Assembly (NCBI GenBank): GCA_963843975.1
Contig: CAWJMG010000003.1
Location: forward strand, 2,550,001 to 2,582,000
From: an uncultured Actinomycetes bacterium
Lineage (GTDB): Bacteria; Actinomycetota; Actinomycetes; S36-B12; CAIYMF01
Direction: 5' to 3'
DNA: 32,000 bases
Part shown: positions 682-28,592 of the stretch, in pieces
Layout of the letters: each line of letters begins with the position of its first letter
Numbering within the stretch: position 1 is the stretch's first letter
Made by a program: the position numbers and the translations under genes
The notes under the pieces: model-generated
What the model saw: only the letters and a program-made list of their open reading frames with translations
Told to the model about the DNA's origin: nothing
The model's database searches: none

Positions 682-1697
682 GGCCCTGCGCGCCTCGAAC
701 GCGGACGAGCGCGCACGCTGGGTCGCCCTCATGCGTGAGTGGTCGGGTTCGTCCCCGGCGTGCTTCCCGTCGTACCTCGAGCTCTTCGCCCGACCCGACG
801 AGGAGCCGACGTTGCTCGCCCTCGAACGGGACGGCCAGCGGGCGGTGCTGCCACTTCTGCTGCGCCCGATCCCGGGTCCAGCGCAGGCCCGGGACGCCGT
901 GGGGCCGTATGGCTACGGGGCGAAGCTTCGACACCGGGGACGGGTCGCCCCGCGCGGAGTTCTGGGAGGGAGCCCGGTCGTGGCTCGCCGACAACGATGT
1001 CGTGAGCACCGTGGTTCGGCTGCCCGTGGTGGACGGCGCGCCACCGTGGCCGTTCGCCCGGCACGAGGTCGGGAGCAACATCGTCCGGGACATCAGGCCG
1101 TGGGCCGAGCTCTGGGCCGACATGGACCACAAGGTGCGCAAGAACTACAACCGCGCAGTTCAATCGGGGCTTACGGTCGGGTTCGGCCGGCTCGAGATGC
1201 TGGACGACTTCCTGCCCGTCTACCTCGCGACCATGGCCCGGCGCGAGGCCGCGGAGGCGTTCCACCTCGACGCCCAACGGCTGGGAGCCCTTCTCGACGA
1301 GATCGACGGCCGATTCGTCGTGGCCGTGGCCAGCCACGACGGGCGACCGCTCGCCGTCGAGCTGTGCCTCGTCGACGGTCCGACCGCCTACTCCTTCCTC
1401 GGGGGAACGCTGGAGCAGGGCTTTCCCTTGCGCGCCAACGACTACCTGAAGTGCGAGATCTTCCGCTGGTGCGAGGGCAACGGTGTGCGGAACTTCGTGC
1501 TCGGCGGCGGCCTGGGCGGCCAGGAGGACGGCATCTACCGCTACAAGAAGAGCTTCGCGCCGCACGGCTCGACCGGCTTCTCCATCGGCGAGTGGAGGGT
1601 CCGGCCCGAGGACTACGACCGGCTGGTCGCCGACCGGGCGGCGCGCGAGCCGGGATGGTCGCCCCCACCCGGGACGCTCCCCTCCTACCGGGGATGA
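668..1697 (+). pseudogene. FemAB-like / BioF2-like GNAT acyltransferase (PF13480-type), interrupted by a +1 frameshift near 917-929
   Basis: The N-terminus (MNMLEALRASNADERARWVALMREW...DAVGPYGYG) is in the frame of ORF 668. The remainder (SFDTGDGSPRAEFWEGARSWL...KVRKNYNRAVQSGL...IYRYKKSFAP) is in the frame of ORF 678. Length is 1030 nt, which is 3n+1. The shift lies at GGGCGAAGCTTCG. Confidence 0.7.
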
Positions 1698-1863
1698 CCC
1701 CCCAGCCCGCTCCGCAGAGTCACGGTGCCGAAGATCTCATCACTCACCGCGCTTCGGACATAGCCGAGAGTTAGCGTTTCGAGGGCCAGGCGGGTTACCG
1801 TCTCGGCGGGCACGGGGGGTGCTCACGCCACCCAGGGCGCAGGCCAAGATCACCGGGGGAACG

Positions 1864-3739
1864 GTGCTGAAGAACCAGGCAGTCCGGCATGCCGCACAGG
1901 CCACGATCGACGCACTCATGTGGGTCGGCGCGGTCATTTTGGCGACGGCGGCGAGGTACGAGTTCGACCTGACGGGCATCCCGCGGTCCTCGATCCTCGC
2001 CATCGGGGCCCTCTCGGCGACGGTCGGGCTGCTGAGCGGCCTCGCGCTCGGGCTGTACGAGGGCCGCTACGTGTACGGGAAGCTTCGAGCAGGTCCGAGC
2101 GGTCGGGCTCGCGGCGTTCGTGACCACGAGCGTGATGCTCGCCGTGCTGTCCTTCCAGGACAACCGCATCGTCCCCCTCGGCGCCATGCTCATGGCCGGC
2201 GCAGGTGCGCTCGCCCTCACCCTCTTCGTCCGCACGATGATCCGCACCTACCGTGACCGCGCCCGCCGGCCTGCCCCTGGCGCTGCTCCCGTGCTCGTGT
2301 TCGGTGCCGGCGAGGCCGGCCAGCAGCTCATCCGCAGTATCCAGCGCGACCGGCACAGCCGCTACCGGGTCGTCGGCGTTCTGGACGACGACCCGACCAA
2401 GCAGCGCCTGCGCATCAGCGGCGTCCCTGTCGTCGGCACCGGGGCGTCCCTCGCGAAGGCGGCCGCTTCGCGCGGCGCCGAGACGCTGATCGTCGCCGTC
2501 GGCCGGCTGGGCGCGACGACCGTCGCCGACCTCGCCGAGCAGGCGACGGCGGCGGGGGTCGACGTCAAGACGATCCCCACCCTCGCCGAGCTGGTCGGCG
2601 AGGTCGACTACCGCGACGTGCGCGATCTCGACGTGGCCGATCTGCTGCGCCGCGATCCCATCCACACCGACCTCACCGGCATCCACAGCCTGATCCGTGG
2701 CCGCCGCGTGCTCATCACCGGCGCCGGCGGCTCGATCGGCTCCGAGCTGGCCCGCCAGATCAACCAGCTCGGCCCGAGCGCCCTCGGGCTGCTCGACCGC
2801 GACGAGTCGGCGCTGCACACCCTCGACCTCAGCCTGGGCCGCCGCGGCCTGTTCGTGGAGGAGGGCCCGATCCTGGCCGACCTCCGCGACCGCGACGGCA
2901 TCTTCGCGGTGTTCCGCGAGTTCCGGCCCGAGATCGTCTTCCACGCGGCGGCGCTCAAGCACCTGCCTCTGCTCGAGCGCTTCCCTCACGAGGCGCTGCT
3001 CACCAACATCGACGGCACCCTGAACGTGCTCGACGCCGCCCGCTCGGTCGACGTCTCGGTGTTCGTGAACATCTCCACCGACAAGGCAGCCGACCCCTGC
3101 AGCGTCCTCGGCTACTCCAAGCGCATCACCGAGTGCCTCACCGCGGCCGCCGGCGCAGGCACGACCGGCGACTACGCCTCCGTGCGCTTCGGCAACGTAC
3201 TCGGGAGCCGCGGCTCGGTGCTGCACGCGTTCGCGGAGCAGATCGACCGGGGCGGCCCCGTCACGGTCACGCACCCCGACGTCTCGCGCTACTTCATGAC
3301 CATCCCCGAGGCCGTGCAGCTCGTCCTGCACGCGTCGACGATGTCGGGCAACGGGCGGGCGCACGTGCTCGAGATGGGCGAGCCTGTCCGCATCTATGAC
3401 GTCGCGCGCCAGCTGATCGCGCGCTCCGGCCGCGACATCCCCATCCAGATCACGGGGCTGCGTCCGGGTGAGAAGCTCGCGGAGCGGCTGTTCGGCGTGA
3501 ACGAGCGACCGCAGGAGACCCAGCACCCACTCGTCTCCTCCGTGGCCGTCCCGTCGCTGGACCGCTCGCTGCTCAGCCGGCTGCACACGTGCACGACCGA
3601 TGCCGAGCTCGTCGAGGCCCTCGACCTGCTCGTGCTCGAGCTCTCGACGAACATCGGTTGCCCGGACGGCGAGTTCCACTCGTCTGCGCTCGACGGGCTC
3701 GAGTCCAGCACCTCGTCCGCACGACGCGTGAGCCTGTAG
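1864..3739 (+). pseudogene. Membrane-anchored nucleoside-diphosphate-sugar 4,6-dehydratase (CapD/PglF/WbpM family), interrupted by a +1 frameshift near 2077-2086
   Basis: The N-terminal TM region (VLKNQAVRHAAQATIDALMWVGAVILATAARYEFDL...GLYEGRYVYG) is in the frame of ORF 1483. The remainder (SFEQVRAVGLAAFVTTSVML...VLITGAGGSIGSEL...STDKAADP...RFGNVLGSRGSV) is in ORF 2120-3739. Length is 1876 nt, which is 3n+1. The GTG start at 1864 is inferred. Confidence 0.75.
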
Positions 3740-4861
3740 ATGTCCTTCCGGATCTACCTCTCCCCTCCGGACGTCGGCGACCTCGAGAAGCAGTACGTCC
3801 TCGAGGCTCTCGACTCGGGCTGGGTCGCTCCGCTGGGCCCGCACGTCGACGCCTTCGAGTCCGAGCTCGCGGCCGCCGCCGGCGTCGGGCACGCCGTCGC
3901 CCTGTCGTCCGGCACGGCCGCCCTCCACCTCGCCCTGATGGGTCTCGGCGTGAAGCCGGGCGACGACGTCGTCGTACCCACGATGACCTTCGGCGCCACG
4001 GCCTTCGCGGTGACCTACGTCGGCGCCAACCCGGTCTTCCTCGACTCCGAGCGGCAGAGCTGGAACCTCGACCCCGACCTGCTCGTGGCCTTCCTCGACG
4101 ACCGTGCGCGCACCGGCACGCTGCCCGCCGCGGTCATCTCCGTCGACGTGTTCGGTCAGGCGGCCGACTACGCGCGCATCGAGGCGGTGTGCGCCGCCCA
4201 CGGGGTCCCGCTGCTCGAGGACGCCGCGGAGGCCCTCGGCGCCACCTGCGACGGGCGCCCCGCGGGCGGGTTCGGCGCCGCCGGCGTGTTCAGCTTCAAC
4301 GGCAACAAGATCATGACCACGAGCGGCGGCGGGGTGCTCGTCTCGGACGACGCGGAGCTCGTGAACCGCGCGAGGTACCTCGCGACGCAGGCGCGCCAGC
4401 CGGTGCCCTGGTACGAGCACACCGACATCGGCTTCAACTACCGGATGAGCAACGTGCTCGCCGCCCTCGGACGCGCCCAGCTGCAGCGTCTGCCGGGGAT
4501 GATCGACGCACGCCGGTCGCACCGCGCGACGTACAGCGAGCTCCTGTCACCGCAGGGCATCACGGTCGTGCAGGACGCTCCCTGGGGCCGCGGCAACAGC
4601 TGGCTGAGCGTGGCGATCCTCCCCGACGCCGAGCTGCCCACCCGCGTCAGGGAGCGCCTCGCCGCGGAGGGCATCGAGTCGCGGCCGGTGTGGAAGCCCA
4701 TGCACCAGCAGCCCGTGTTCACCTCGGCCGACTCGTCGCTGAACGGCAACGCCGACGACCTGTTCGCCCGCGGGCTCTGCCTGCCGAGCGGCAGCGCTCT
4801 CACGGACCAGCAGGCTCGCGAGGTGGCGTCCATCGTCCTAGCCGCCGTCGAGAGTGGATGA
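3740..4861 (+). CDS. DegT/DnrJ/EryC1/StrS-family aminotransferase (PglE/WbpE-like UDP-4-keto-6-deoxy-HexNAc 4-aminotransferase)
   Basis: Intact 373-aa ORF. ATG follows directly after the upstream stop. Family motifs: SSGTAALHLAL, LEDAAEALGA, FSFNGNKIMTTSGGG (PLP lysine), GFNYRMSNVLAALG. Confidence 0.85.
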   Translation: MSFRIYLSPPDVGDLEKQYVLEALDSGWVAPLGPHVDAFESELAAAAGVGHAVALSSGTAALHLALMGLGVKPGDDVVVPTMTFGATAFAVTYVGANPVFLDSERQSWNLDPDLLVAFLDDRARTGTLPAAVISVDVFGQAADYARIEAVCAAHGVPLLEDAAEALGATCDGRPAGGFGAAGVFSFNGNKIMTTSGGGVLVSDDAELVNRARYLATQARQPVPWYEHTDIGFNYRMSNVLAALGRAQLQRLPGMIDARRSHRATYSELLSPQGITVVQDAPWGRGNSWLSVAILPDAELPTRVRERLAAEGIESRPVWKPMHQQPVFTSADSSLNGNADDLFARGLCLPSGSALTDQQAREVASIVLAAVESG

Positions 4862-4918
4862 TCAGCAGAGGCACTTCGCTGCACCAGCCCTCGCCAGCCC
4901 CGCACTTCGGAGAACTCC

Positions 4919-5947
4919 ATGCATGACGTCATCCCCGGCTCGACCGTGCTCATCACCGGGGGCACCGGGTCGTTCGGATCCACCATGGTGCGCCGGCTGC
5001 TCGCGCGCGACGTCGCGCAGGTGCGCATCCTGAGCCGCGACGAGGCCAAGCAGGACGACATGCGACGCCACCTCGCCGACCCGCGGGCGCGCTTCTACGT
5101 GGGCGACGTCCGCGACCGGAACTCTGTCGACGACGCCATGCGCGGTGTCGACCGCGTGTTCCACGCCGCTGCCCTCAAGCAGGTGCCGTCGTGCGAGTTC
5201 TTCCCCGAGCAGGCCGTGCGCACCAACGTCGAGGGCAGCCGCAACGTCATCCACTCGGCCGCCGCCGCTGGCGTGAAGTCCGTGGTGTGCCTCAGCACCG
5301 ACAAGGCGGTCTACCCCATCAACGCGATGGGCATGACGAAGGCCCTGATGGAGAAGACGGCCCAGGCCTTCACCCGTAACAACCCCGGGTCGGCGACCGT
5401 CGTCTCGATGGTCCGCTACGGCAACGTCATGTACTCGCGCGGCTCGGTGATCCCGTTGTTCGTCGAGCAGATCCGCAGCGGCAAGCCGCTGACGCTGACC
5501 GATCCCGACATGACGCGCTTCCTGATGTCGCTCGCCGAGTCGGTCGCCCTCGTCGAGTACGCGTTCACCCACGCCGAGCCCGGAGATCTCTTCGTCCGCA
5601 AGGCCCCTGCCAGCACCGTCCGCGACCTCGCCGTGGCCGTCGCCGAGCTGCTCGGCGTCGAGCCCGACCTGCGCGTGATCGGCACCCGTCACGGCGAGAA
5701 GCTCTACGAGACGCTGCTCAGCCGCGAGGAGATGGTCAAGGCCGAGGACCACGGCGAGTACTTCCGCGTGCCGCTCGACGCCCGGTCGCTCGACTACGGC
5801 CTCTACTTCGACAAGGGAGGCCAGGAGGTGCAGACGTACGACGACTACACGTCCCACAACACCGAGCGCCTCGACGTCGAGGGCACCAAGAACGTCCTCC
5901 TCGCCCTGCCCGAGGTGCAGCAGCTCGTCGCGGAGTCCGCGAGGTGA
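4919..5947 (+). CDS. fnlA: UDP-N-acetylglucosamine 4,6-dehydratase/5-epimerase (FnlA/CapE/WbjB family), first step of UDP-L-FucNAc synthesis
   Basis: Intact 342-aa ORF. Motifs: LITGGTGSFG, HAAALKQVPSCEFFP, STDKAVYPINAMGMTKALMEK, VRYGNVMYSRGSVIPLF. GGAGAA ribosome-binding site upstream. Confidence 0.8.
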   Translation: MHDVIPGSTVLITGGTGSFGSTMVRRLLARDVAQVRILSRDEAKQDDMRRHLADPRARFYVGDVRDRNSVDDAMRGVDRVFHAAALKQVPSCEFFPEQAVRTNVEGSRNVIHSAAAAGVKSVVCLSTDKAVYPINAMGMTKALMEKTAQAFTRNNPGSATVVSMVRYGNVMYSRGSVIPLFVEQIRSGKPLTLTDPDMTRFLMSLAESVALVEYAFTHAEPGDLFVRKAPASTVRDLAVAVAELLGVEPDLRVIGTRHGEKLYETLLSREEMVKAEDHGEYFRVPLDARSLDYGLYFDKGGQEVQTYDDYTSHNTERLDVEGTKNVLLALPEVQQLVAESAR

Positions 5948-7069
5948 GGATCGTCGTCACCGGCGCGCACGGGTTCCTGGGCTGGCACGTCCGGGCGGCC
6001 CTGCGCGCGCGCAACACCGACGAGGTCGTGGCCGTCGGCCGTGAGCCTCGACGGCGACCCGGCAGCTCTCGACGCGCTCGTCACGGGTGCGGACGCCGTC
6101 CTGCACCTTGCGGGCGTGAACCGCGCAGAGGACGACGAGCTGCGCGGCACCAACGTGCGTCTGGCCCGGTCCCTGACCGATGCGCTCGACCGCACGGGCT
6201 CGCGTGCACGCGTCGTCTACTCCGACTCGATCCAGGCAGGCAACGGCACGGCGTACGGCGACGGCAAGGCTGCGGCCGCTGGGCACCTCGGCTCGTGGGC
6301 GGCCGAGGCCGGCACCGAGGTCGCCGACGTCCGGCTGCCCAACCTCTTCGGGGAGCACGGCAGACCCGGTTACAACTCGTTCGTCGCCACGTTCTGCCAT
6401 GCCCTGGCCACCGGTGGCCAGCCGACGATCGACGTCGACCGCGAGGTGCCGCTGCTGCACGCGCAGGACGCCGCCGACCACCTCATCGATGCGCTCACGG
6501 GCGGGCCGGACGTCGTGGGGCCGGCCGGCACCCCGAAGACCGTCTCGGCGGTGCTGGCGGCGCTCACGTCGTACCGCGACCTGTACGCCAAGGCCGAGAT
6601 CCCGGACATCGACGACCCGTTCGACCTCGCGCTGTTCAACACGTTCCGGTCGTACCGCTTCCCCGGGATGTTCCCCTACGAGCCGACCGTGCACGCCGAC
6701 CAGCGCGGCGAGCTCTTCGAGGTGCTGCGCGCCCACCGCGGCCAGGCTCAGGTGTTCTGCAGCTCATCCGTCCCGGGTGCGGTGCGCGGGAACCACTTCC
6801 ACCGCCGCAAGGTGGAGCGCTTCCAGGTGCTGCGCGGCGAGGCCGTCATCGCGCTGCGCAAGGTGCTGACCGACGAGACCGTGGAGTTCCGGGTCTCGGG
6901 CGACACGCCTTCGCTCGTGGACATGCCGACGATGTGGTCGCACAACATCACCAACGTCGGCGACACCGACCTGCTCACCCTCTTCTGGACCGCGGACCTC
7001 CTCGACCAGGCGAACCCCGACACCTATCCGGACGTCGTGGAGCAGCCGGGCCCAGCAGGGACCACGTGA
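5944..7069 (+). pseudogene. fnlB: FnlB/CapF-like bifunctional SDR + C-terminal cupin enzyme (UDP-L-FucNAc pathway reductase/epimerase), interrupted by a +1 frameshift near 6043-6049
   Basis: The GTG start overlaps the fnlA stop (GTGA). The N-terminus MRIVVTGAHGFLGWHVRAALRARNTDEVVAVGRE is in the frame of ORF 5944. The remainder (LDGDPAALDALVTGADAVLHLAGVNR...cupin part RGNHFHRRKVERF) is in ORF 6041-7069. Length is 1126 nt, which is 3n+1. Confidence 0.7.
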
Positions 7070-7114
7070 GCGACGTGACCGACCTACCCGAGGCTCGGAG
7101 AGGCGGCCGTACCG

Positions 7115-8402
7115 GTGCCCGCTCTGGGCGGCCGGCAGGCGGTTCTCGCGACGGTCGCGGCTCGCGGGTTCGCGATCGCGGCGACCTTCGCCCTCTCGGT
7201 CGTCGTGGCGCGCTCCCTCGGGGTCGCGGGAGCGGGCACCTACTTCGCGCTGCTCGCCGTGGTCACGCTGTTCGCGGGCATCGGACGATGGGGCACCGAC
7301 ACTCTCGCGCTCAAGACCGTGGCTGCAGCGGGTGCGAGCTCACGGTCGGCCGCCTGGACACTCGTCGCGCTCGGCACTGCTGTGTCGACCGCGCTGTGCC
7401 TCGTCCTCGTGGTCGTCGCGCCGCTGCTGCTCGGGCGGGTCTTCGATCCCTCCCCGTCGTCGACCGCGATCGTGCTCGCCGTCCTCAGCATCGTCCCGAC
7501 ATCGACGTACCTCGGAGCCGCCGGGATCCTGCGCGGCTCCGGTCGCGTGGCCGAGGGTGCGATGGCCGAGCCTCGGCTCGACGCCGACGCTGGCCACTCT
7601 CGCCATCCTCGGCCTGTCAGGTACGACCGGCGTGGACCTCACCGCCGTCTTCGCCTGCTACCTCGGAGCAAGCGTCGCCACCGCCGCCTGGTCCCTGCTG
7701 GCGGCGCGGTCCGCGCTGGCAGATCGGCCTCGGGGCCTGGGTGAGGCGCGCGCGACGTTCACGCGACGCAACGCCCCGAACCTGTCCTCGATCTGCGGCA
7801 GCGCGACGCTCTTCTACGCCCTCACCTGGGCACCCGTCATCGTTCTGGGTCTCGTGAGCAGCGCCGACGAGGTCGGCTATCTCGCAGCTGCGACCAGGAT
7901 CGCGGCGTTCGTGTCCCTCGCCGCCGCCATTCAGGTCACGTACCTCGCTCCGCGCTTTGCAGCACTGCACGCGTCCGGTCGCATCGACGACCTCAACCGG
8001 CTCGCGGGGCGGTCCGCCGCCCAGGCCGTAGGAGTCGGAGCCGTCCCGGCGGTGGTGATCCTTCTGTTCCCCGAGTGGTGCCTGCACATCTTCGGCAGCG
8101 ACTTCGCCTCGGCCGCCGAGCCGCTGCGGATCCTCGCGGTCGGTGCGGTCGTGGTGTGCGCCCTCGGCCAGCCACTGATCATCATGGTCACCTGCGGCTA
8201 CGAGCACACGGCGCTCGCACTGACCGCGGCAGCGGTCGCGGTCGCGGTGGCGCTCATGCTTGCGGTCGGCGGCACCTTCGGCGCCACCGGTGTCGCGATC
8301 GTGACGGCCGTCGTGACCATCGCCTACGGGCTGGCGGCCTCATTGGTTCTGAGGGCGCGGGCAGGGATCGCACCGTGGATGGCGACGCAGTGGAAGGGCT
8401 GA
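7115..8402 (+). pseudogene. wzx: Wzx-like polysaccharide flippase (polysaccharide biosynthesis/MOP superfamily), interrupted by a +1 frameshift near 7568-7574
   Basis: Hydrophobic multi-TM sequence runs in ORF 7115 up to ...GILRGSGRVAEGAMAE. It then continues in the frame of ORF 7332 (LGSTPTLATLAILGLSG...). Length is 1288 nt, which is 3n+1. Confidence 0.65.
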
Positions 8403-8406
8403 CCCG

Positions 8407-9648
8407 ATGACTCCTACGCCGGCAGGCCCGCGCGTCCTCATGATCACCGGCACGTTCGCCACCCCGTCTGGCCAGCCCTGGCTCATGGACGACCTCGCCC
8501 ACGCGATGGCCGACGAAGGCGCCACGGTGGACGTGCTGGTCTTCGAGTCCCGCACACCGCGACCGCGCACCGGCTGGGTTCAGCTGACGCCGTCCATCCG
8601 CTACATGAGCCTCGGCCTCGAGCAGCCGCGTCGTCCGGGCCGCCTCGGCGCGGCCACCACGCACACGTCGAACATGGCAGCGATGCACCGCGCCGCCTGG
8701 CGCGCGGTCAAGGACGAGCGCTACGACCTCGGCCTGTACACCTCGATCGGGACGCTGGCGGGCGGCTTCCCCGGCCGTCTGCGAAAGCACGGCGTCGTCC
8801 GGCACCTCGGCTACATCCTGTGGGACTTCTTCCCCCGCCATCATCGGGAGATCGGCAGTCTGAGCGGCCCCGTCACGAGGCTCGAGCCCGTCCTCAAGAG
8901 GGTGGAGCGCGCGTCGTTCGCGCGGGCCGACTCGATCGTGCTCATGAGCACCGCGAACGAGTCCTTCCTCCGGGCCTACCACCCCGGTGTGGACGCGACG
9001 ATCGTCATCTCCCCACCGTGGGCGAGGGAGGACGAGGGCCCGCTCGACGACAGCGCACGGGTCGCCGCCCCGTTCACCGTGGTGTGCGGCGGTCAGCTGA
9101 CGCACGGACGCGGCATCGAGACCCTCATGGACGCCTCGGAGCTCCTCATCGCCTCCGGCGACGACGTCGAGATCGAGGTGTACGGCTGGGGCCCGGACAG
9201 CGAGCGGCTCAAGGCCGAGGCAGCGCAACGACGGCTCACGAAGGTGCACATCCGCGACGGGCTACCGCGGAGCGACTACCGCAAGGTCCTCATGAGGTCG
9301 CACGCCGGCGTGACCGTCAACGTCCCCGGCGTCAGCATCCCGACGTTCCCCACCAAGATCTCGGACTACTGCCTCGCGGCGCTGCCGGTCATCGCCTGCC
9401 TCGAGGAGTCGACCGATGCGGGCACCGTCCTCGAGGAGGCAGGTGCTGGTCTTTCGGTGCAGGTGGGGGACGCCGAGGCGCTCGCCGAGGCGATCCGGAC
9501 CGTCCGACGCGAGTGGGAGTCAGGAGCCTGGGCGGAACGCTCGCGGGCATCCCGCCATCTGTACGACGTGCACCTGAGCGCGGCGGTCGCCGCGCGACGC
9601 ATGCTGGCTGCGGCCATCGACGATCCGGGGGAGAGACACCATGGCTGA
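8407..9648 (+). CDS. GT4-family (group 1) glycosyltransferase, WbuB-like (candidate L-FucNAc transferase)
   Basis: Intact 413-aa ORF. GT-B C-terminal pattern (FTVVCGGQLTHGRGIETL...FPTKISDYCLAALPVIA). Sits next to the fnl genes. Confidence 0.7.
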   Translation: MTPTPAGPRVLMITGTFATPSGQPWLMDDLAHAMADEGATVDVLVFESRTPRPRTGWVQLTPSIRYMSLGLEQPRRPGRLGAATTHTSNMAAMHRAAWRAVKDERYDLGLYTSIGTLAGGFPGRLRKHGVVRHLGYILWDFFPRHHREIGSLSGPVTRLEPVLKRVERASFARADSIVLMSTANESFLRAYHPGVDATIVISPPWAREDEGPLDDSARVAAPFTVVCGGQLTHGRGIETLMDASELLIASGDDVEIEVYGWGPDSERLKAEAAQRRLTKVHIRDGLPRSDYRKVLMRSHAGVTVNVPGVSIPTFPTKISDYCLAALPVIACLEESTDAGTVLEEAGAGLSVQVGDAEALAEAIRTVRREWESGAWAERSRASRHLYDVHLSAAVAARRMLAAAIDDPGERHHG

Positions 9649-11029
9649 GGGCCGTGTGCACGAGCGAGGGGGCCCCGAGGGGGGCGCACCGGCCGCTGAG
9701 GGGGGTTCGGGGCGTGGTCGCATCTGGCCGCTCGACCTGTGGCAGTGGCTGGTCGTCGGCTCGTTCCTGGCGAGCCTGGTCCGGTCATCGGTTCCCCTGG
9801 CGCCGTACCCGCGGGCCGTGTCGGGTCTGCTCGTCGTCCAAGCCGCCCTGCTCGCCCTTGCCGTGCTCGCCGCCTGGCGCGGGCGAGGGAGCATCGCCTT
9901 CCGCCCGCCCACGCCGGTCCTCGTGCTCGCAGCCTTCGGTGTGTTCGCTCTCGTGTCCGCGCTCTGGAGCATCCGACCCTCGGTATCGGTCGCCCAGGCG
10001 GCAGCCGTGCTGTACATCGCCGCGTTCTTCGCCGCCACGTGGACGTGGCGCTGGCGGGAGGCCGGTTCCGCCTCCCGCGACGTCGACGTGGCCTTCTGGG
10101 CCGTCGTCGCGGTGACCGTCCTCGGACTCGCGCTCGCCACGCTGCGCGTCTCCTGGGTGATCGGCGACTACTACCGCTTCATCGGGCTGACGAGCAACGC
10201 CAACTACGCGGGCATGATCGCGGGGATGATGGTTCCAGTCGGCTACTGGCACGTCGTACGCGACCGGCTCTCGGCCCGCTCCTCATGGGCTATCGCGACG
10301 GCTGTTCTCTGCCTCTCCATCGCCCTCAGCGGATCCCGCGGAGCGGCGGTTGCCACGGCAGTCGCCGTGGTCCTGGTCCACGTCCTCGCGCGCAGCGGCT
10401 GGCGGCAGCTCCTCGCCCTGGTCCTCACCACCGTCGGCGCCTACGTGGTGTTCCGCCTCCTGTTCGTCCTCGGTGGCTTCCTCGCAAGCCTCACCGCCTC
10501 GACGGGGTTCCTCCCAGGTGGCGGGTCAGGAGGCCAGGGCGGCGGGATCCCCGACTCCCTCGGTCGTGTCGGGGAGACTGCCACCGACATCACCTCGGGA
10601 AGGCTCGACATCTACCGCATCCTGGGTGGGGCCTGGCTCGAGCAGCCCTGGGGCGGTTGGGGGTACGGGACCACGCAGCACCTGGGAAGCACACAGGGCC
10701 TCTCCGCCCACAACATCTTCCTTCTGGTGCTCGTCGAGCTCGGCGTGGTCGGTCTCGGCCTGTTCCTCTGGTGCCTGGGATCGATCGCACGGACCGGTCG
10801 GATTCACGCTGCCCCAGGGCTCGCAGTCGCCGGTGTGACGGTCGTGCTCATGGAGCTCACCGAGTCGTCGATCCTCGGTTTCGGCGGTCCCAACGCTTTG
10901 CTGGCCTGGGTCATCCTGTTCGGCTGGGCGGCCGAAGGCCTCGCCTCGCGGCGCGGCCGAGGCCCGGAGACAGCCGGGGCCACCGGAAGTCCGTCGCCGC
11001 AGGCAGTGCCCGACGGAGTGCCAGAATGA
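9641..11029 (+). CDS. O-antigen ligase/polymerase-like membrane protein (Wzy_C domain)
   Basis: Intact 462-aa ORF whose ATG overlaps the GT stop. At least 10 hydrophobic segments. Wzy_C-like SGSRGAAVATAVA and periplasmic-loop WGGWGYG...AHNIFLLVLVELGVVG. Confidence 0.65.
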   Translation: MAEGRVHERGGPEGGAPAAEGGSGRGRIWPLDLWQWLVVGSFLASLVRSSVPLAPYPRAVSGLLVVQAALLALAVLAAWRGRGSIAFRPPTPVLVLAAFGVFALVSALWSIRPSVSVAQAAAVLYIAAFFAATWTWRWREAGSASRDVDVAFWAVVAVTVLGLALATLRVSWVIGDYYRFIGLTSNANYAGMIAGMMVPVGYWHVVRDRLSARSSWAIATAVLCLSIALSGSRGAAVATAVAVVLVHVLARSGWRQLLALVLTTVGAYVVFRLLFVLGGFLASLTASTGFLPGGGSGGQGGGIPDSLGRVGETATDITSGRLDIYRILGGAWLEQPWGGWGYGTTQHLGSTQGLSAHNIFLLVLVELGVVGLGLFLWCLGSIARTGRIHAAPGLAVAGVTVVLMELTESSILGFGGPNALLAWVILFGWAAEGLASRRGRGPETAGATGSPSPQAVPDGVPE

Positions 11030-11084
11030 CCTGCGTCGCCCGGACCGGATGGGACGGGCACAGAGTCGAGGAGCGAGACACGCC

Positions 11085-12194
11085 GTGAAGGTCATGACCG
11101 TGGTCGGAACCCGGCCCGAGATCATCCGGCTCTCGCGCATCATCGCCCGGTTCGAGGACTCGTTCGACCACGTCCTCGTGCACACCGGGCAGAACTGGGA
11201 CTTCCGGCTCAACGGCATCTTCTTCGACGAGCTCGGGCTGCGTGCACCGGACCACGTCTTCGAGCCCGACACCAGCTCGCTGGGCGGGCTGCTCGGCGAC
11301 GTGCTGCGCCACACCGAGGACGTCATCGCGCGCGAGCGCCCAGACGCCTTCGTCATGCTCGGCGACACCAACAGCGGCATCTCAGCGGTGATGGCCAAGC
11401 GCATGCGCATCCCCGTCTACCACCTCGAAGCCGGCAACCGCTGCTTCGACGAGAACGTCCCCGAGGAGATCAACCGGCGGATGTTCGATCACCTCGCCGA
11501 CTTCAACCTCGTCTACACCGAGCACGCCCGCCGCAACCTGCTCTCCGAGGGCCTGCACCCCCGCCGGATCCTGCTCACAGGCTCACCCATGCGTGAGGTG
11601 CTCGAGCACTACCGTCCGCAGATCGATGCCTCCGACGTGCTGGCCCGCACCGGCCTGACCCCCGAGGGCTACGTCCTCGTGAGCGCCCACCGCGAGGAGA
11701 ACGTCGACAAGCCGGCGAGGCTGCGCGCGCTGCTCGACTGCCTTGTCGCCGTACGGGACCGATTCGGGCTGCCGGTCCTGGTCTCCACCCACCCGCGCAC
11801 GCGCAACCGGCTGGCCGAGCTCGACACGGCGACGGACCTGGAGGGCATCACCTTCGCCGAGCCGTTCGGGTTCCACGACTACAACCACCTGCAGATGAAC
11901 GCGTTCGCGGTGCTGTCCGACAGCGGCACCATCGCCGAGGAGTCCTCGCTCCTGCGCTTCCCCGCCATCACGCTGCGGTCCTCCATCGAGCGGCCCGAGG
12001 CGCTCGACACCGGATCGATCATCATGACCGACCTGCGGCCCGAGAGCGTCGTGGACGGCATCGTCGCTGCGCGGACCGACGGCGCGCTCACCGCGGTGCC
12101 GCGCGACTACGAGATCGACGACTGCAGCATCCGGGTGCGCAACTTCATCCTGTCGACGGCCCGGGAGAACGCGCGGTGGTCGGGCCTGCTGTGA
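11085..12194 (+). CDS. fnlC: Non-hydrolysing UDP-N-acetylglucosamine 2-epimerase (FnlC/CapG/WbjD, WecB family)
   Basis: VKVMTVVGTRPEIIRL, VHTGQNWD, HLEAGNRCFDENVPEEINRR, LSDSGTIAEES. GTG at 11085 is preceded by GAGGAGCGAG. The ORF track starts at 11049, but that N-terminal extension looks non-coding. Confidence 0.85.
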   Translation: MKVMTVVGTRPEIIRLSRIIARFEDSFDHVLVHTGQNWDFRLNGIFFDELGLRAPDHVFEPDTSSLGGLLGDVLRHTEDVIARERPDAFVMLGDTNSGISAVMAKRMRIPVYHLEAGNRCFDENVPEEINRRMFDHLADFNLVYTEHARRNLLSEGLHPRRILLTGSPMREVLEHYRPQIDASDVLARTGLTPEGYVLVSAHREENVDKPARLRALLDCLVAVRDRFGLPVLVSTHPRTRNRLAELDTATDLEGITFAEPFGFHDYNHLQMNAFAVLSDSGTIAEESSLLRFPAITLRSSIERPEALDTGSIIMTDLRPESVVDGIVAARTDGALTAVPRDYEIDDCSIRVRNFILSTARENARWSGLL

Positions 12195-12281
12195 CGATGG
12201 GCTCAGGCCCGCGATGAAACCAGTCGGGGCGCCCATACGTCCTCTCACAGGACGACCAGCACCGCACCACCGCCTTCCACG

Positions 12282-14229
12282 ATGACGGGTGACATGAGCA
12301 CCGAGCAGGATCCGAGCGCCGTCGCGCCGTCCCCTGCACGTATGCGGGTGACCCGGCGCGGCCTGCTCCTCGCAGGTCTGGTGCTGCTGGCCACCCTGAT
12401 CCTGGCGCCGCTCGTGTCGATCCTGGTCGTCAAGGTGTCTGCCTCGGCGGCGCAGGACCGGCTGGCGTCCGCCCAGGAGGCTCTGACCTCGGGTGACCTC
12501 GGCGGTGCGCAGGAGGCTGTGGCCTCGGCGCAGCGGGACGTCTTCGTGCTCGGGGCCGCCGCCGGCTCGGGCCCCATGCGCCTGCTCGGGGCCCTGCCTC
12601 CGACCTCCGACGCGGTCACCGACCTCGACCACATGGTCGTCGCCATCCAGCACATCACCGCCGCCAGCGCCTCAGCCGTCGGTGCCTACACCGCGGCGAG
12701 CGGCGACGAGCCCGGCACCCCGGCGCTCTTCGCCGACGGCCGCGTGGCCGTCGACCAGCTGCCCGGGTTCTCCCGCACCGTCGACTCGGTCGATGCCGAC
12801 CTCGCGGCCGCTGTGGCGGCGCTCGACCAGGTGCGCCCTGAGCCCGAGGGCCTCGAGTCGATCGTCAACGCCCGGAACGACGCCGTCGACCAGCTCGCCC
12901 CCCTGCAGGACACGGTCACCCGCGTCCGGGCACTGATCCCGCTGCTGCCCGGGGCCCTCGGCGACACCACGCCGCGCCGCTACCTCGTCACCATGCTCAA
13001 CGAGGGCGAAGCTTCGGGCCAGCGGCGGCGCGCCCTTGGCCGTGGCCGTGATCGAGTTCCGCGACGGTGCCTTCAGCATCCCCTTCAAGGGCGCGGTCGC
13101 CCAGATCCCGTGGCCCGGCGTGGGCACCCGCAACGGCGTGCTCCGGTGGAAGGGCGCGCCGGCGAGCCCGTGGAACTGGGACGGCGGCGACCGCGTGGAC
13201 CGGTTCGCCAACTCCAACTTCCACCTCGACTTCCGTTCGGCCGGCTACGACATGGCCGGCGCCTGGGAGGCGGGCAACTACGGCAAGGTCGACGGCGTCG
13301 TCGCCCTCGACGTCACCTCGCTCGCGGCCATCCTCCGCGCGACCGGGCCGATCCCGGAGAGTCCGTACGGCGAGCTCACTGCGGACAACATCGGGCAGAA
13401 GCTGCTCATCGACGCCTATCGGCAGTACGCCGACGACCAGGTCGCCCGCCAGACGGCGAACCAGATCATCGTGTCGGCCGTCTTCGAGCGCCTCACCCAG
13501 GCCGGGACCGCGCTGCAGGTCGCGACCGCGCTGGCCGATGTGGCGCCGGGTCGGCACGTCCAGATGTGGATGCGCGATCCCGCCCTCGCACAGCAGGTCC
13601 ACGAGCTCGGCCTCGACGGCTCGCTCAGCTCGACCGCGGTCGACCACGCGGGTCTCTACGCCCAGAACGGCAACAGCAGCAAGGCCGACATCTTCCAGAA
13701 CCGGCGCCTCACGGTCGACGCCACCCTCGCCGCCGACGGCTCGGCCGAGGTGACCCAGACCTGGCACGTCGTGCAGGCCGTGCCCAACGAGCTGCTCGGC
13801 CCAGACAAGACCGGCTATCTCTCGAGCTGGCTGGACGGCAGCTGGTTCCTGCTGCGACCGTCAGGCGCGACCGGCACGCGCGTGACCCGGCCGGACGGAT
13901 GGACGCTGGGACGCTGGCCCGACGGCGGCACGTGGGTGGACGACGGCTACGGCCAGCAGGTGCAGCGCCTCGAGGGTGCGATCGCACCCACGCAGGGTGT
14001 CGAGCTCATGGTGCGCTACCGCCTGCCGGCAGGCACGTTCTCCGGCGCGGACGGTGCCCTGCGGTACCAGCTCACCGTCGAGCCGCAGGCCATCTACGGG
14101 CCTGCCCAGGCCGAGGTGACCGTGCGCGGCCCCGGAGGCGAGGCCGTCACGCAGACCCAGGACCTGGACCGCCAGATCACCTTCTCGATCGACGTCCGCC
14201 AACCGGTCGGCGCTGCGACGACATCCTGA
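12282..14229 (+). pseudogene. DUF4012-domain membrane-anchored protein, interrupted by a +1 frameshift at 13008-13014
   Basis: N-terminal TM segment (LLLAGLVLLATLILAPLVSILVV) and coiled region are in ORF 12282 up to PRRYLVTMLNEGE. It then continues as LRASGGAPLAVAVIEFRDGAF... in the frame of ORF 13036. Length is 1948 nt, which is 3n+1. Confidence 0.7.
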
Positions 14230-17922: not shown

Positions 17923-19302
17923 GGGATCGCCTGCTCGTAGCGGGCCTGCTCCCAGTCGGTGACGGCCGCGCAGAAGCGCGCCCACTCGTCCGACTTGAGA
18001 TCGACGAGCAGTGCGGACAGGTCCGCACCCAGAGCGTCGCGGACGACGTCGTCCTTGCGGAAGGCGGTGATCGCATCGGCCAGCGTGAGGGGCAGCGGCT
18101 CGAACTGCGTCGCCTCACCGTCGTACGAGCTGCCGACCGTGGGGGCGCCCGGGTCGAGCTTGTTCGCGAGGCCGTCAGCGGCTGCAGCGATGATCGCGGC
18201 GTGCGAGAGGTACGGGTTCACACTCGCATCGGGCAGCTTGTACTCGAGGCGCCCGTTGGCAGACAGCCGCACGGTGCAGGTCTTGTTGTCCATGCCCCAG
18301 TTGATCTGCGACGGCGCGAACTGCCCGGAGTCCCAGTAGCGCTTGTAGGAGTTCACGGTCGAGCCGTTGATCAGCATCGTGCCCGCGGCGTGGCTGAGGA
18401 TGCCGCCAAGGGCGTGCTGGCCCTCGTCGGTGAGGTGCAGCTCGGTGCGGCCGGGCTCGGCGAGGATGTTGACGTCGTCGCGCCAGAAGCTGACGTTGTG
18501 GTGGCAGCCGTTGCCCATCATCCCGGTGGCCGGCTTGGGCATGAAGCTCGCGACGAGGCCGAGCTCGCGCGCCACCTGCTTGCAGATCTGCCGGTAGACC
18601 ACGAGCCGGTCGGCGGTGAGGTCGGAGTGGTCGTACATCCAGTTGAGCTCGAGCTGGCCCGGGTCCTCGTAGTCGCCCTCGATCATGTCGAGGCCGAGGG
18701 CCTGCGCGTAGCGGATCACTCGCTGGTAGACCGGGCGCATCTTCTCGAGGTTCTCGACGTGGTACGCCGGGCTCGATCCGGGCGCGAAGTGCACCTCGAG
18801 CCCCGGACCCTTCCACGTCATCTCCGGCTCGCATCCTGAGCGCATGTGCAGGCCGGTGCTCGCGGTGAACTCGGCATGCACACGCTTCATCGCGCCGCGG
18901 CTGTCGGTGGCGAGGCGCTGGCCGCCGACCTCGGGCAGATGCTCGGGCTCGTAGATCTGGGTGAAGAACCGCGCGACCGTGGTGTCCCACGGCAGGACGG
19001 CGAAGGTGTCGAGGTCGGGCATCGCGGTGAACTCGGCCGCGTGCACCCCGCCGCCGAGCAGGTTGCCCGCGCGGTCCGACTGCAGGTCGGAGATCGCGGT
19101 GCGGTGCAGGTTGACGCCGCGGTCGAGGTTGCGCCGCAGGTGCTTGGCCGGCACCACCTTCCCGATCACGCGCCCGGTCACGGTGACGCCCTGGTAGTAC
19201 ACGAACTCGACGCCTGAGCTTCTCGATCGTCCGTGCGATCTCGTCGACCTGGGCCGCGTCGGCGTTCGCCTCGCGGTGCTGGTCGAGCGGGGTCTTCGAC
19301 AT
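17919..19302 (-). pseudogene. Glutamine-synthetase-family gamma-glutamyl-amine ligase (PuuA/GlnA3/GlnA4/IpuC-like), interrupted by a +1 frameshift near 19214-19226
   Basis: N-terminus MSKTPLDQHREANADAAQVDEIARTIEK is in the frame of ORF 18175-19461; ATG at 19302 with a GAGAGGA ribosome-binding site. The remainder (GVEFVYYQGVTVTGRVIGK...FMPKPATGMMGNGCHHNVSFW...NSYKRYW) is in the frame of ORF 17919. Length is 1384 nt, which is 3n+1. Confidence 0.75.
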
Positions 19303-19336
19303 AGGGATCCTCTCGGGGCGGGACTGGACGACGGGT

Positions 19337-20551: not shown

Positions 20552-20555
20552 GGCG

Positions 20556-20744
20556 TCAGTCCTCGATGAAGATCGCCTGCACAGGGCAGACGTCCATCGC
20601 GTCCTCGACCTGCTGGCGCAGGGAATCGTCCGGCGCGCCCTCGAAGACGAGCTTGCTGTTCTCGTCCATCTGGAAGACGGCCGGCGCTGCGATCGCGCAC
20701 TGGCCGTGGTCCTGGCACAGGTTCATGTCGACGACGACCTTCAT
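20556..20744 (-). CDS. Small [3Fe-4S]/[4Fe-4S]-type ferredoxin, P450 redox partner
   Basis: MKVVVDMNLCQDHGQCAIAAPAVFQMDENSKLVFEGAPDDSLRQQVEDAMDVCPVQAIFIED, 62 aa. CxxxGxC...CP cysteine pattern. The ATG overlaps the P450 stop (ATGA). Confidence 0.8.
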   Translation of the reverse strand: MKVVVDMNLCQDHGQCAIAAPAVFQMDENSKLVFEGAPDDSLRQQVEDAMDVCPVQAIFIED

Positions 20745-21982
20745 GCGCGTGCCTCCGAAGCCGTGGGGGTGAACAGGAGGGGGAGCTTGGTGGGGCCGGT
20801 GTTGCCGGAGTACGGCAGCCACTCGGAGCCCGCGCCGACCCGGAGGTCGGGCATGCGCGCGGCGAGGATCGGCAGGGCCACGGACATGTCCATGCGGCCC
20901 ACGAAGTGGCCGAGGCAGTGGTGGGCGCCGCCGCCGAAGCCGAAGTGCGGCGTGCGCCCTTCGACGGTGATGTCGAAGGCCGGGCTCTCGACGGCGTCGG
21001 GGTCGGTGCCGGCCGACTCGGAGAACAGATGGATCGTCGTGCCGGCGGGGATCTGAAGGCCCTCGAACTCGAAGTCGTCGAGCGCCTCGCGGGTCACCCA
21101 GGTGACCGTGGGGGCGACGCGCATGACCTCCTCGACCGCGGCCTTGCCGAGATCGGGGTTGGCGCCCAGGAGCGCCCACTGGTCGGGGTGGTCCGCGAAG
21201 GTCTGCATCGCCAGGCTCAGCTGGTTGCGCGTGGTGTCGAAGCCGCCGAAGACCATGAGCGCCATCGAGTTGCGCAGCTCGGTCGCCGAGAGCCTCTCGT
21301 CGTCGCGCTGCGCCTGCACGAGCGCGGTGGCGAAGTCGTCGCGGGGCTTCGCCGTGCGGTCGGCGATCACCGCGTCGCAGTAGGCGAAGAGCTCGGTCAG
21401 CGCCGCCTCGATCTGCGGCAGCTCCTCCTGGAACGTGACGCCCATCGCCAGGCCGATGGTGGCCGACAGGCTCGCGATCTGCGGCCAGTCCTCCTCCGGC
21501 AGACCGAGCAGGATCGCGATGACGCGGGCGGCGTACGGCTCGGCGAACTCCGCGACGTACTCGCACTCGCCGGTGGGCGCGAACCCGTCGACCAGCTCGT
21601 TCGCCAGCGCGACGAAGCGCGGCGAGAGGGAGGCGAGGGCACGCGGCGAGAAGGCCGGGTTGAGCAGGCGGCGCAGGCGGGCGTGGTCCTCGCCCTCCAT
21701 GTTGAGCAGCCAGCCCGCCCACCACTCTGCGAACGGCCCGGTCACGCCGTTGTGCGCGGGCCAGGCCCAGCTGCCCTGGCGCAGGCGGCGGTCCTTGATG
21801 AGCCGGTTGACCTCGTCGTAGCGGAGCACGGCGAGGCCGTACGGCGTCCGCGCGCACCAACCCTCGGCACGGGCCTCACGGACGGCGTCGGACTGGACCG
21901 AGAACGACGGGTCCGAGACGGGGAGGTACGGGAGCTCGTCCCACGACAGCGGGGCTGCAGGCGCGATGGGGATGGAGGTCAT
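20741..21982 (-). CDS. Cytochrome P450 monooxygenase
   Basis: 413-aa ORF. Heme-thiolate loop FGFGGGAHHCLGHFVG, EXXR element (EEVMRVAP) and I-helix-like MVFGGFDTTRN. Confidence 0.9.
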   Translation of the reverse strand: MTSIPIAPAAPLSWDELPYLPVSDPSFSVQSDAVREARAEGWCARTPYGLAVLRYDEVNRLIKDRRLRQGSWAWPAHNGVTGPFAEWWAGWLLNMEGEDHARLRRLLNPAFSPRALASLSPRFVALANELVDGFAPTGECEYVAEFAEPYAARVIAILLGLPEEDWPQIASLSATIGLAMGVTFQEELPQIEAALTELFAYCDAVIADRTAKPRDDFATALVQAQRDDERLSATELRNSMALMVFGGFDTTRNQLSLAMQTFADHPDQWALLGANPDLGKAAVEEVMRVAPTVTWVTREALDDFEFEGLQIPAGTTIHLFSESAGTDPDAVESPAFDITVEGRTPHFGFGGGAHHCLGHFVGRMDMSVALPILAARMPDLRVGAGSEWLPYSGNTGPTKLPLLFTPTASEARA

Positions 21983-21989
21983 GCGTTAA

Positions 21990-22018
21990 AGCATTGACCT
22001 CATATGTTTTCCTGTCAA
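21990..22018 (-). promoter_or_regulatory. Candidate sigma-70-type promoter giving a leaderless P450 transcript
   Basis: On the minus strand: TTGACA (22018-22013), 17-nt spacer, AATGCT (21995-21990). The -10 element ends about 7 nt before the ATG at 21982. This is the most AT-rich stretch of the window. Confidence 0.35.
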
Positions 22019-27755: not shown

Positions 27756-28592
27756 GGAGCGCGAGCGCGGTCACGCCGCCCACGACGAGGGCGACGCCCA
27801 GGATCTGCAGGCGCCCCAGGCGTTCGCGGTAGACGACGTACGCGATGACCGCGGCGAACGTCGCGAACTGCGAGGCCAGCACGGAGGCGACGGCCACGCT
27901 GTCGCGCGCCGCGAACGCGAACGCCACGAAGCCGCCGACCTCCATGAGCCCCGTAGTCACGACGTACGGCGCCGCCGCGCGGTTCATCCGCAGGCGCCCC
28001 GTGACGGCCAGCGGAACCGCGAGGAGCACGACACCCGCCAGCCGGGGAGGCAGGGACGCCCACGCCACGGGCAGGTCGCCGCTGAGTCGACCGATCGAGT
28101 AGAGCGCGAGCCCGAAGACCACGGCGCCGCAGGTCGCGAGGAGAACCGCACGCACCGGGCGCTCGTGCTCGATGGGGGCGGGGTCGGGAGCCACCGAGGA
28201 GACGACGACGCCCACCACGATGACCGCGAGCGCCAGCACCACGAGCGGCGCGATCGACTCGCCGAACACCGACGACACCACGGCCGCCACCGCCCCCTCG
28301 GTCGCCACGACCGGTGCGACCAGGCCCACCTTGCCGACCTTGAGCGCGGCGTACGCGAAGAGCAGACCCCCGACGTTGCCCAGGCCTGCGAGGCCGAACC
28401 ACAGCAGATTCGTGCCGCTGAGCTCGCCGGGACGCCGCCGCCGAGCGCGAACGGCAGCGTCAGCACGAGACCGATCAGCATGGCCCAGGCGACGACCGAG
28501 TACTGGTCGAGGACCTTCACCGATCGCGACGACGACACCGTGCTGACCGACCAGGCCAACGCGGTGGTCAGCCCGAGCACGACGGCGATCAC
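27745..28592 (-). pseudogene. EamA/DMT-family transporter, interrupted by a -1 frameshift within about 28420-28445
   Basis: N-terminus MIAVVLGLTTALAWSVSTVSSSRSVKVLDQYSVVAWAMLIGLVLTLPFALGGGV is in ORF 27984-28592. The remainder (PGELSGTNLLWFGLAGLGNVGGLLFAYAALKVGKVGLVAPVVATEG...) is in the frame of ORF 27745. Length is 848 nt, which is 3n+2. Confidence 0.7.

Follow-up and report, generated by a model that had tools for sequence, protein, structure and literature searches.

Consensus errors that are bound to a short motif and mediated by base modification have been documented in nanopore genomes (PMC10687267, PMC11610573). In Listeria, the nanopore consensus displayed systematic errors at motifs such as GCAGC and GCTGG (PMC10687267), and methylation-induced errors were likewise encountered in Klebsiella outbreak genomes (PMC11610573). 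Within the Actinomycetota, m5C methylation of GRGCYC, a motif containing GAGCTC, has been described in Propionibacterium freudenreichii (PMC11649196).

The stretch of DNA analysed here, 32 kb in all and hereafter termed the window, comes from a single 2,758,296-bp contig, as is typical of a long-read assembly. The one-base changes that we found in it resemble the nanopore modification errors in being tied to one short motif (RAGCTY), in having survived polishing, in hitting only some copies of the motif and in being absent from close relatives. The published nanopore errors are also absent from orthogonal data; the window was checked against relatives and against contigs of the same strain. 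The published errors are mostly substitutions (PMC10687267), whereas those in the window are mostly one-base indels that split genes; moreover, both the nanopore platform and the modification are putative in the present case. In common with SacI/BanII-type methylation, the errors of this high-GC actinobacterium fall chiefly on GAGCTC (six of nine sites). Unlike such methylation, however, GAGCTT/AAGCTC is also affected (three of the nine window sites and the error in a Logan contig), and this form lies outside both GAGCTC and GRGCYC.

Frame-Breaking Sites and Their Motif

The initial annotation had drawn attention to the hexamer AAGCTT, stating that it occurs only three times in the window and that each copy coincides with a +1 frame change. 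An exhaustive scan recovered the same three copies (923-928, 2080-2085 and 13009-13014) and no others. The one to two copies that had been expected by chance are too many, as shuffled sequences gave a mean of 0.59, with three or more copies in only 1 of 100 shuffles. The sequence context was described correctly: GAAGCTTCG encloses all three copies, GGGCGAAGCTTCG is common to those at 923 and 13009, and the perfect 10-bp palindrome CGAAGCTTCG at these same two sites is created by the extra A. The frame indeed shifts by +1 at every copy, from phase 2 to 0 at 923, from 1 to 2 at 2080 and from 0 to 1 at 13009, with the Pfam matches of the three genes divided between two frames. The unexpanded GAGCTTCG that had been reported on the minus strand is also present, at 15874.

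Six further frame-breaking sites, at 6047, 7093, 7572, 19220, 25909 and 28425, had been missed. Since they are of the same origin, they change the interpretation of the AAGCTT pattern. The window thus has nine such sites in eight genes (Table 1), all of them at a true GAGCTC or GAGCTT, i.e., RAGCTY: the three AAGCTT sites derive from an underlying GAGCTT, the six others from GAGCTC. The sequence-specific process that had been postulated is thereby borne out. Pure one-base indels account for eight of the nine sites, while the ninth (25909) combines a substitution with a lost base. An extra A, giving GA[A]GCTT, is found at 923, 2080 and 13009 and recurs in minus-strand form at 19220; the added base is a C or G at 6047, 7572 and 7093, and a single base is lost at 25909 and 28425.

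Table 1. Frame-breaking sites in the window (1-9), very probably consensus errors, and one control site
Site	Position	Strand	Reading in the window and true reading	Gene
1	922..930	+	GA[A]GCTTCG, true GAGCTTCG	GNAT/FemAB-like acetyltransferase (674-1697), broken
2	2079..2087	+	GA[A]GCTTCG, true GAGCTTCG	CapD-like NDP-sugar epimerase/dehydratase (1864-3739), broken
3	6043..6050	+	GAGC[C]TCG, true GAGCTCG	CapF-like SDR/cupin (5944-7069), broken
4	7089..7096	+	CGAG[G]CTC (minus strand GAGC[C]TCG), true CCGAGCTCGG	Wzx-like flippase (7066-8402), broken at N-terminus
5	7568..7575	+	GAGC[C]TCG, true CCGAGCTCGG	Wzx-like flippase, second break
6	13008..13016	+	GA[A]GCTTCG, true GAGCTTCGG (E-L-R)	DUF4012 (12282-14229), broken
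7	19216..19222	-	GAGCT[T]C on the plus strand, GAGA[A]GCTC on the coding strand; true GAGCTC	GlnA-like (17919-19302, -)
8	25901..25917	+	CTCGAGCGC-GCTCG, true CTCGAGCTCAGCTCG	cNMP-binding/CBS/DUF294 (25298-27123), broken
9	28420..28428	-	GAGCTC-GCC, true GAGCTCCGCC (one C lost)	EamA transporter (27745-28592, -), broken
Control	20783..20788	+	GAGCTT, right in the window; mis-assembled in contig L096 (GGGGAAGC-TGG)

The motif is sharply delimited. Errors fall at 9 of the 49 RAGCTY sites versus none of the 82 other AGCT sites (Fisher p = 8.7 × 10−5); RAGCTY, present in the window as GAGCTC and as GAGCTT/AAGCTC, covers about 1% of it, and roughly one motif copy in five is in error. Bare AGCT and GAGCT were rejected as the motif, since 54 CAGCTC/GAGCTG and 18 CAGCTG sites are error-free. 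The longer GAGCCTCG was likewise rejected as a deterministic signal, because only three of its eight copies in the window are erroneous, the other five being genuine and shared with relatives. A blunt cut at AG^CT with one added nucleotide would explain 6047, 7093 and 7572 and leave the GA[A]GCT class unaccounted for. The local context gccGAGCTCggc is right at 16320 and wrong at 7568, which fits marginal consensus calls and not a deterministic biological process. Correction of the window leaves no AAGCTT at all. Hence, the hexamer that the deposited sequence shares with HindIII restriction-modification systems is very probably made by error, and the HindIII-type (AAGCTT) methylase proposed earlier is not indicated, the true sequence being GAGCTT at the three sites.

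Restored Genes and Comparison with Related Sequences

Nine single-site corrections restore eight genes without internal stops and with 87-100% identity to relatives. The restored products are the acetyltransferase (340 aa, after deletion of one A), the CapD-like (624 aa), CapF-like (374 aa), Wzx-like (444 aa, after both repairs), DUF4012 (648 aa), GlnA-like (460 aa), cNMP-binding/CBS/DUF294 (608 aa) and EamA (282 aa) proteins; seven of these lengths equal those of relatives, the exception being the CapD-like protein, with 625 aa in the relative. The GC3-phase coding signal is undiminished on either side of every shift. For the three AAGCTT genes, the peptides that had been predicted upon deletion of one A proved correct. 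At exactly these positions relatives are one base shorter, and their genes are intact, with lengths of 340, 625 and 648 aa.

Metagenome relatives with about 92% DNA identity, collinear with the window over 13.7 kb, have all genes intact. Over this span, the comparison gave exactly six coding one-base gaps, all representing extra bases of the window at RAGCTY, and these six changes are absent from L081-L084, L089 and L095. Thus, at site 1, L081 and L082 (92% relatives) read CGA-GCTTCGAC within an intact gene; at site 2, L081, L082 and L089 read GGCA-GCTTCGAG; at site 3, where the window moves from phase 1 to 2, relatives read GCGAGC-TCGAC; at sites 4 and 5 they read CCCGAG-CTGGGAG and GCCGAGC-TCGGC, respectively; and at site 6, L081 and L095 are one base shorter. 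The repaired N-terminus of the flippase, VSDVTDLPELGEAAV, is identical to that of L081, and the complete repaired protein shows 97.5% identity to it. The sites at 923, 2080, 6047, 7093 and 13009 were judged in this manner against relatives of 89-92% DNA identity and not against the same strain.

More distant homologues, obtained by a scan of GTDB species representatives, have at most 78% amino-acid identity and were used for alignments of the junctions, not for DNA comparison. The junction at site 2, [GA]-S-[FLIY] and mostly GSFEE, is kept in all 22 homologues inspected out of the 27 that span it, with G-S-F-E/D conserved over it among CapD homologues. At site 6, the restored stretch had been likened to a DUF4012 family motif; N-x-x-E-x-R/K/F-A/P-x-GG is indeed kept in 23 of 23 retrieved homologues, with RASGG in most, and the N-x-x-E-x-R...GGAPL-type stretch spans the junction in all 23 (RASGGAPL in most).

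Three contigs were assembled independently from run ERR12037365, which may be the read set behind the genome; the contigs would then be independent of it in method only and not in data. They match the window with 99.97% identity across 21.8 kb. Just five loci differ, all of them RAGCTY (7572, 19220, 20783-7, 25905-9 and 28425), with no difference outside RAGCTY in the 21.8 kb compared. Three of the window changes are cleanly covered by these same-strain contigs and absent from L093 and L096, so that intact GlnA-like, CBS/DUF294 and EamA genes are present there. The extra T at site 7, which removes the first 27 codons of the GlnA-like gene, is missing from L096 (99.965% identical) as well as from L091, an 87% relative, and the repaired product has 100% identity to that of L096. 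Site 8 (one substitution and one lost base) and site 9 each divide the domains of their gene between two frames in the window, and L093 holds both genes intact at 608 and 282 aa. L094 begins exactly at site 5 (7572) with a third variant, GCTTCGG; its left end is the only Logan contig end that coincides with a motif site, so that coincidence of contig ends with the motif was given no weight. At a tenth motif site (20783), where the window is correct, L096 has an indel of its own, and a 413-aa P450 gene kept in the window and in L091 is lost in L096. Hence, both assemblies err at RAGCTY but at different copies, which indirectly points to a read-level problem. Scans of metagenome_contigs, by protein and with a DNA pattern in which one base at site 7572 was optional, gave no match, and neither did exact-protein look-ups of the DegT, epimerase and CapE genes of the window and of the fragment P0002.

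Origin of the One-Base Changes

We conclude with high confidence that the three AAGCTT copies and the six further sites are errors of the deposited consensus at RAGCTY and are not in the DNA of the organism. Their cause is probably a DNA modification in the long-read data. A putative methyltransferase with RAGCTY or GAGCTY specificity, its gene lying in another part of the 2.76-Mb genome, would modify the motif. The modification would in turn interfere with base-calling when native DNA is read on a long-read platform (probably nanopore), and polishing would correct the resulting miscalls only in part. The errors themselves consist of a duplicated base inside RAGCTY or of a base lost or miscalled at or beside the motif. 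Gain of an A or T converts GAGCTT to GAAGCTT, creating a false HindIII site, and gain of a C or G converts GAGCTC to GAGCCTC; each such error shifts the frame and splits a real gene. An RAGCTY or GAGCTY specificity, with its SacI-like core, would fit as the modification target. No methyltransferase domain was detected in the window ORFs scanned, and the literature searched yielded no RAGCTY specificity; the error pattern points indirectly to an RAGCTY/GAGCTY base modification in this lineage, which may be one so far undescribed. Of the two candidates offered by the initial annotation, consensus or base-calling error is the best explanation, albeit with a different motif, AAGCTT being the product of the error and not its target.

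Alternatively, the changes could be genuine indels arising from motif-targeted mutation, for instance error-prone joining of ends cut by a SacI-like enzyme or another RAGCTY nuclease, which would make the genes true pseudogenes or the population heterogeneous. Mutagenic Ku/LigD end joining exists in Actinobacteria, the motif specificity is also compatible with a nuclease-driven process and the third variant of L094 at 7572 could mean real heterogeneity. Nevertheless, nine breaks in 32 kb extrapolate to about 780 genome-wide, and they affect conserved genes (the GlnA-like enzyme, a transporter and a signalling protein) that show no decay: they contain no stops, keep their GC3 signal and are 87-100% identical to their relatives. 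Further, three of the changes are missing from the near-identical same-strain contigs, which show a different change elsewhere, at a tenth copy of the motif, and the varying position of the insertion within the motif, together with one substitution, is unlike the outcome of one cleavage geometry. We therefore consider this origin very unlikely and, by the same measure, give little credence to RAGCTY self-restriction with error-prone end joining as a source of population heterogeneity in this uncultured Nanopelagicales-like actinobacterium.

Less probable still is a generically noisy assembly, in which random residual indels would be linked to AAGCTT/GAGCTY by coincidence. One frameshift per 3.6 kb does mark the sequence as poorly polished; however, the nine errors of the window and the single error of the Logan contig all lie on the motif, none lies in the G/C homopolymers that are abundant at 71% GC and there are zero off-motif differences in the same-strain comparison.

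Template-switch mutagenesis at quasi-palindromes, reportedly described by Ripley and by Lovett, was the second candidate of the earlier reading, whereby insertions would perfect CGAG/CTTCG into CGAAG/CTTCG. The extra A at 923 and 13009 does produce a perfect 10-bp palindrome, CGAAGCTTCG, but only these two of the nine changes perfect an inverted repeat. Three destroy perfect palindromes, namely the extra bases at 7093 and 7572, which disrupt the 10-bp CCGAGCTCGG, and that at 6047, which disrupts GAGCTC, and at 25909 and 28425 a base is lost. Contradicted thus by six of nine sites, and with a loopless 10-bp palindrome making a poor hairpin and the class-identical change at 19220 absent from the same-strain contigs, this mechanism has a negligible likelihood, slightly below that of random noise.

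Some of the sites superficially resemble known +1 frameshift sites, in that a slippery codon in the P-site precedes a rare Arg codon. Nonetheless, programmed +1 ribosomal frameshifting of the prfB/Ty1 kind at CUU-CGA or CCU-CGA, regulating the polysaccharide cluster, for which one might cite the upstream frame (AAG CUU CGA at 923 and 2080, CCU CGA at 6047), is refuted because it is neither conserved (no shifted orthologue in 80+ loci or among 23 DUF4012 homologues, and unshifted genes in the same-strain contigs) nor consistent in phase (GAA GCU UCG at 13009, the motif on the strand opposite to the gene at 7093 and two sites requiring the opposite shift).

Consequences for the Genome and Its Annotation

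There are, accordingly, no HindIII sites, programmed frameshifts or pseudogenised polysaccharide cluster in this region; the pattern is an artefact and not biology. It matters for quality control, as a public single-contig genome of 2.76 Mb has about one false frameshift per 3.6 kb in the window. By extrapolation, split genes would number on the order of several hundred, spreading truncated proteins into databases, where the fragments P0002, P0124 and P0273 are already present. A simple correction rule follows, namely to inspect, wherever a reading frame breaks, each 7- to 9-mer derived from RAGCTY.

AAGCTT Copies and Frame Changes in the Window

The initial annotation had reported three AAGCTT copies in the 32-kb window, each within the same 9-mer and at a +1 frame change, with a 13-mer shared by the first and third. 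This pattern is genuinely present in the deposited sequence. There are exactly three copies (923, 2080, and 13009), all embedded in GAAGCTTCG, and GGGCGAAGCTTCG is common to 923 and 13009; dinucleotide-preserving shuffles yielded a mean of 0.59 copies, with three or more in 1 of 100. Translation in three frames, together with a GC3 phase plot, showed the +1 change at each copy, the coding phase passing from 2 to 0, 1 to 2, and 0 to 1, respectively, and Pfam placed the Acetyltransf_6/FemAB, Polysacc_synt_2/CoA_binding_3, and DUF4012 domains 3′ of the respective shifts. Beyond these, GC3 plots and Pfam scans detected four additional genes split between frames, and DNA comparison later added two breaks, giving nine sites in eight genes in total.

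Frame-breaking sites, same-strain contigs, and neighboring features (square brackets, extra base in the window; for 924–7572 and 13009, relative to the 92% relatives)
Window position	Feature	Window sequence	Comparison
924	Acetyltransf_6/FemAB gene	CGA[A]GCTTCGA	
2081	CapD-like gene	GGA[A]GCTTCGA	
6047	CapF-like SDR/cupin gene, split near 6040 (GC3 plot/Pfam)	TGAGC[C]TCGA	
7093	Wzx-like flippase, second break (DNA comparison)	CGAG[G]CTCGG	
7572	Wzx-like flippase, split near 7570 (GC3 plot/Pfam)	CGAGC[C]TCGG	window GCCTCGG; L094 GCTTCGG (at its third base); relatives GC-TCGG
13009	DUF4012 gene	CGA[A]GCTTCGG	
19220	GlnA-like gene, N-terminus broken (DNA comparison)	GAGCT[T]CTCG	extra T relative to L096
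20783–20787	P450 gene	GGGGGAGCTTGG	L096 GGGGAAGC-TGG
25905–25909	cNMP-binding/CBS/DUF294 gene, split near 25900 (GC3 plot/Pfam)	GAGCGC-GCTCG	L093 GAGCTCAGCTCG
28425	EamA transporter, split near 28420 (GC3 plot/Pfam)	GAGCTC-GCC	L093 GAGCTCCGCC
7570–11459	same-strain contig L094		99.974% identity
13752–22431	same-strain contig L096		99.965% identity
22749–32000	same-strain contig L093		99.968% identity
1–15631	complete surface-polysaccharide cluster		
4919–5947, 5944–7069, 11049–12194	CapE/CapF/2-epimerase trio		
14270–15631	453-aa protein without Pfam match		
15687–22000	operon-like run, minus strand		conserved in L090–L092
28638–30257	Exo_endo_phos-family gene, minus strand		

Intact Genes in Relatives and Same-Strain Contigs

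A search with the repaired CapD protein sequence recovered three informative matches. One, P0002 (534 aa, 100% identical), is the source genome's own truncated CapD product, encoded on one contig of 2,758,296 bp; the remaining matches are two full-length relatives, 92% and 87% identical. The 92% relatives, the JGI metagenome contigs L081–L084, are collinear with window 1–13743 at 92.3% DNA identity and carry unbroken genes throughout (340, 625, 374, 444, and 648 aa). Their gapped DNA alignment with the window has only 12 gap openings. Six are one-base coding gaps with no offsetting gap nearby, and in all six the extra base is on the window side; the others lie between genes, keep the frame (a 3-bp indel), or cancel each other as a pair within a divergent stretch. 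Two more relatives (L089 and L095) gave the same result. Further, the junctions are spanned by single alignments in 27 CapD-like, 60 CapF-like, and 1 DUF4012 loci, and by 23 of the 23 DUF4012 proteins retrieved. Alignment of homologs showed G-S-F-E/D to be conserved across the CapD junction and an RASGG-type stretch across the DUF4012 junction, with N-x-x-E-x-RASGGAPL in most homologs. All eight genes are restored by deleting one base at seven sites, inserting one base at another, and making a two-change repair at the ninth; they then have plausible start codons, no internal stops, and lengths as in relatives. The products are 87–97.5% identical to those of the roughly 92% relatives and match the same-strain contigs at 100%.

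These same-strain contigs, three from the Logan assembly of run ERR12037365 that possibly share the source genome's reads and would then be independent in method only, cover 21.8 kb and differ from the window at only five loci. At 19220, 25909, and 28425 they encode unbroken proteins of 460, 608, and 282 aa, respectively. The reverse holds at 20783, where a 413-aa P450 gene kept in the window and in the 87% relative L091 is broken in L096, which has its own indel and substitution at a GAGCTT site (its positions 7030–7040), destroying the gene. Thus, both assemblies err at this motif, each at copies of its own, which indicates that the trouble arose with the reads and not with the organism. The left end of L094 (1–7, window 7570–7576) coincides exactly with the error site at 7572 and carries a third variant; this start possibly marks a graph break from discordant reads.

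The Error-Prone Motif

The corrected window contains 35 GAGCTC, 14 GAGCTT/AAGCTC, and no AAGCTT, the last in agreement with the chance expectation of 0.59: AAGCTT is the product of GAGCTT with a duplicated A. RAGCTY is wrong at 9 of 49 sites, compared to none of the 82 other AGCT sites, which include 54 CAGCTC/GAGCTG and 18 CAGCTG (Fisher p = 8.7 × 10−5). The error is stochastic per motif copy, since gccGAGCTCggc is correct at 16320 yet wrong at 7568. The original observation is confirmed and extended, and the feature is an artefact; the systematic consensus error at a methylated AAGCTT proposed in the initial annotation was right in kind, with RAGCTY as the motif instead.

Its alternative, quasi-palindrome template switching, fits 923 and 13009 and no other sites, and we reject it: at both 7093 and 7572 the extra base disrupts a perfect CCGAGCTCGG palindrome, and two further sites have lost bases. 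Real pseudogenes or nuclease-driven mutagenesis would mean roughly 780 breaks per genome, yet signs of decay are absent, and the same-strain contigs contradict this explanation. Programmed +1 frameshifting fails because the codon phase of the motif differs between sites, as does its strand relative to the gene, because the shift would have to run the other way at two sites, and because no orthologs are shifted. Random assembly noise cannot explain why 10 of 10 errors fall on about 1% of the sequence.

A Probable Origin in Base Modification

The indels are specific to the motif and absent from the independent assemblies and the relatives, and errors occur in both assemblies. We infer base modification at RAGCTY/GAGCTY as their cause: modified native DNA would have disturbed base-calling on a long-read platform, most likely nanopore, and polishing would have left residual consensus indels at the modified motif. 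This is suggested by the source being a single 2.76-Mb contig, by documented modification-mediated nanopore errors bound to motifs (PMC10687267; PMC11610573), and by methylation of GAGCTC-containing motifs in Actinomycetota (PMC11649196). In the published nanopore cases, however, substitutions predominate over indels. The literature searched yielded no RAGCTY specificity, and none of the scanned window ORFs showed a methyltransferase domain. The finding is of use for quality control and hints indirectly at RAGCTY modification. Truncated products of these errors are already in public collections (NCBI/ENA) as P0002, P0124 (377 aa), and P0273 (395 aa), the first two as cluster representatives.

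Surrounding Genes

The polysaccharide cluster codes for two DegT-type aminotransferases, GNAT, CapD-like, Wzx, a GT4, Wzy, and DUF4012 proteins, along with a CapE/CapF/2-epimerase trio resembling the Staphylococcus aureus cap5/8 EFG genes for UDP-L-FucNAc. The 92% relatives share this gene order; in the 87% relatives, the flank on the upstream side of CapD differs and an additional GT4 gene lies between DegT and CapE. For the Wzy-like gene, the called length is 403 aa in L081 and L083 and 462 aa in the near-identical L082, perhaps because of a different start site or an indel. The operon-like run comprises two Peptidase_C26/GATase genes, a family-3 solute-binding protein, a GlnA-like gamma-glutamyl ligase, ferredoxin reductase, ferredoxin, and P450, and suggests a catabolic pathway for amines or xenobiotics that depends on gamma-glutamylation. 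The Exo_endo_phos-family gene, a 539-aa ORF called at 495 aa in L093, is missing from the corresponding place in L090 and L091, two of the 87% relatives with conserved synteny; it is an insertion, at strain or species level, that separates the EamA gene from a gene for a 153-aa hypothetical protein.
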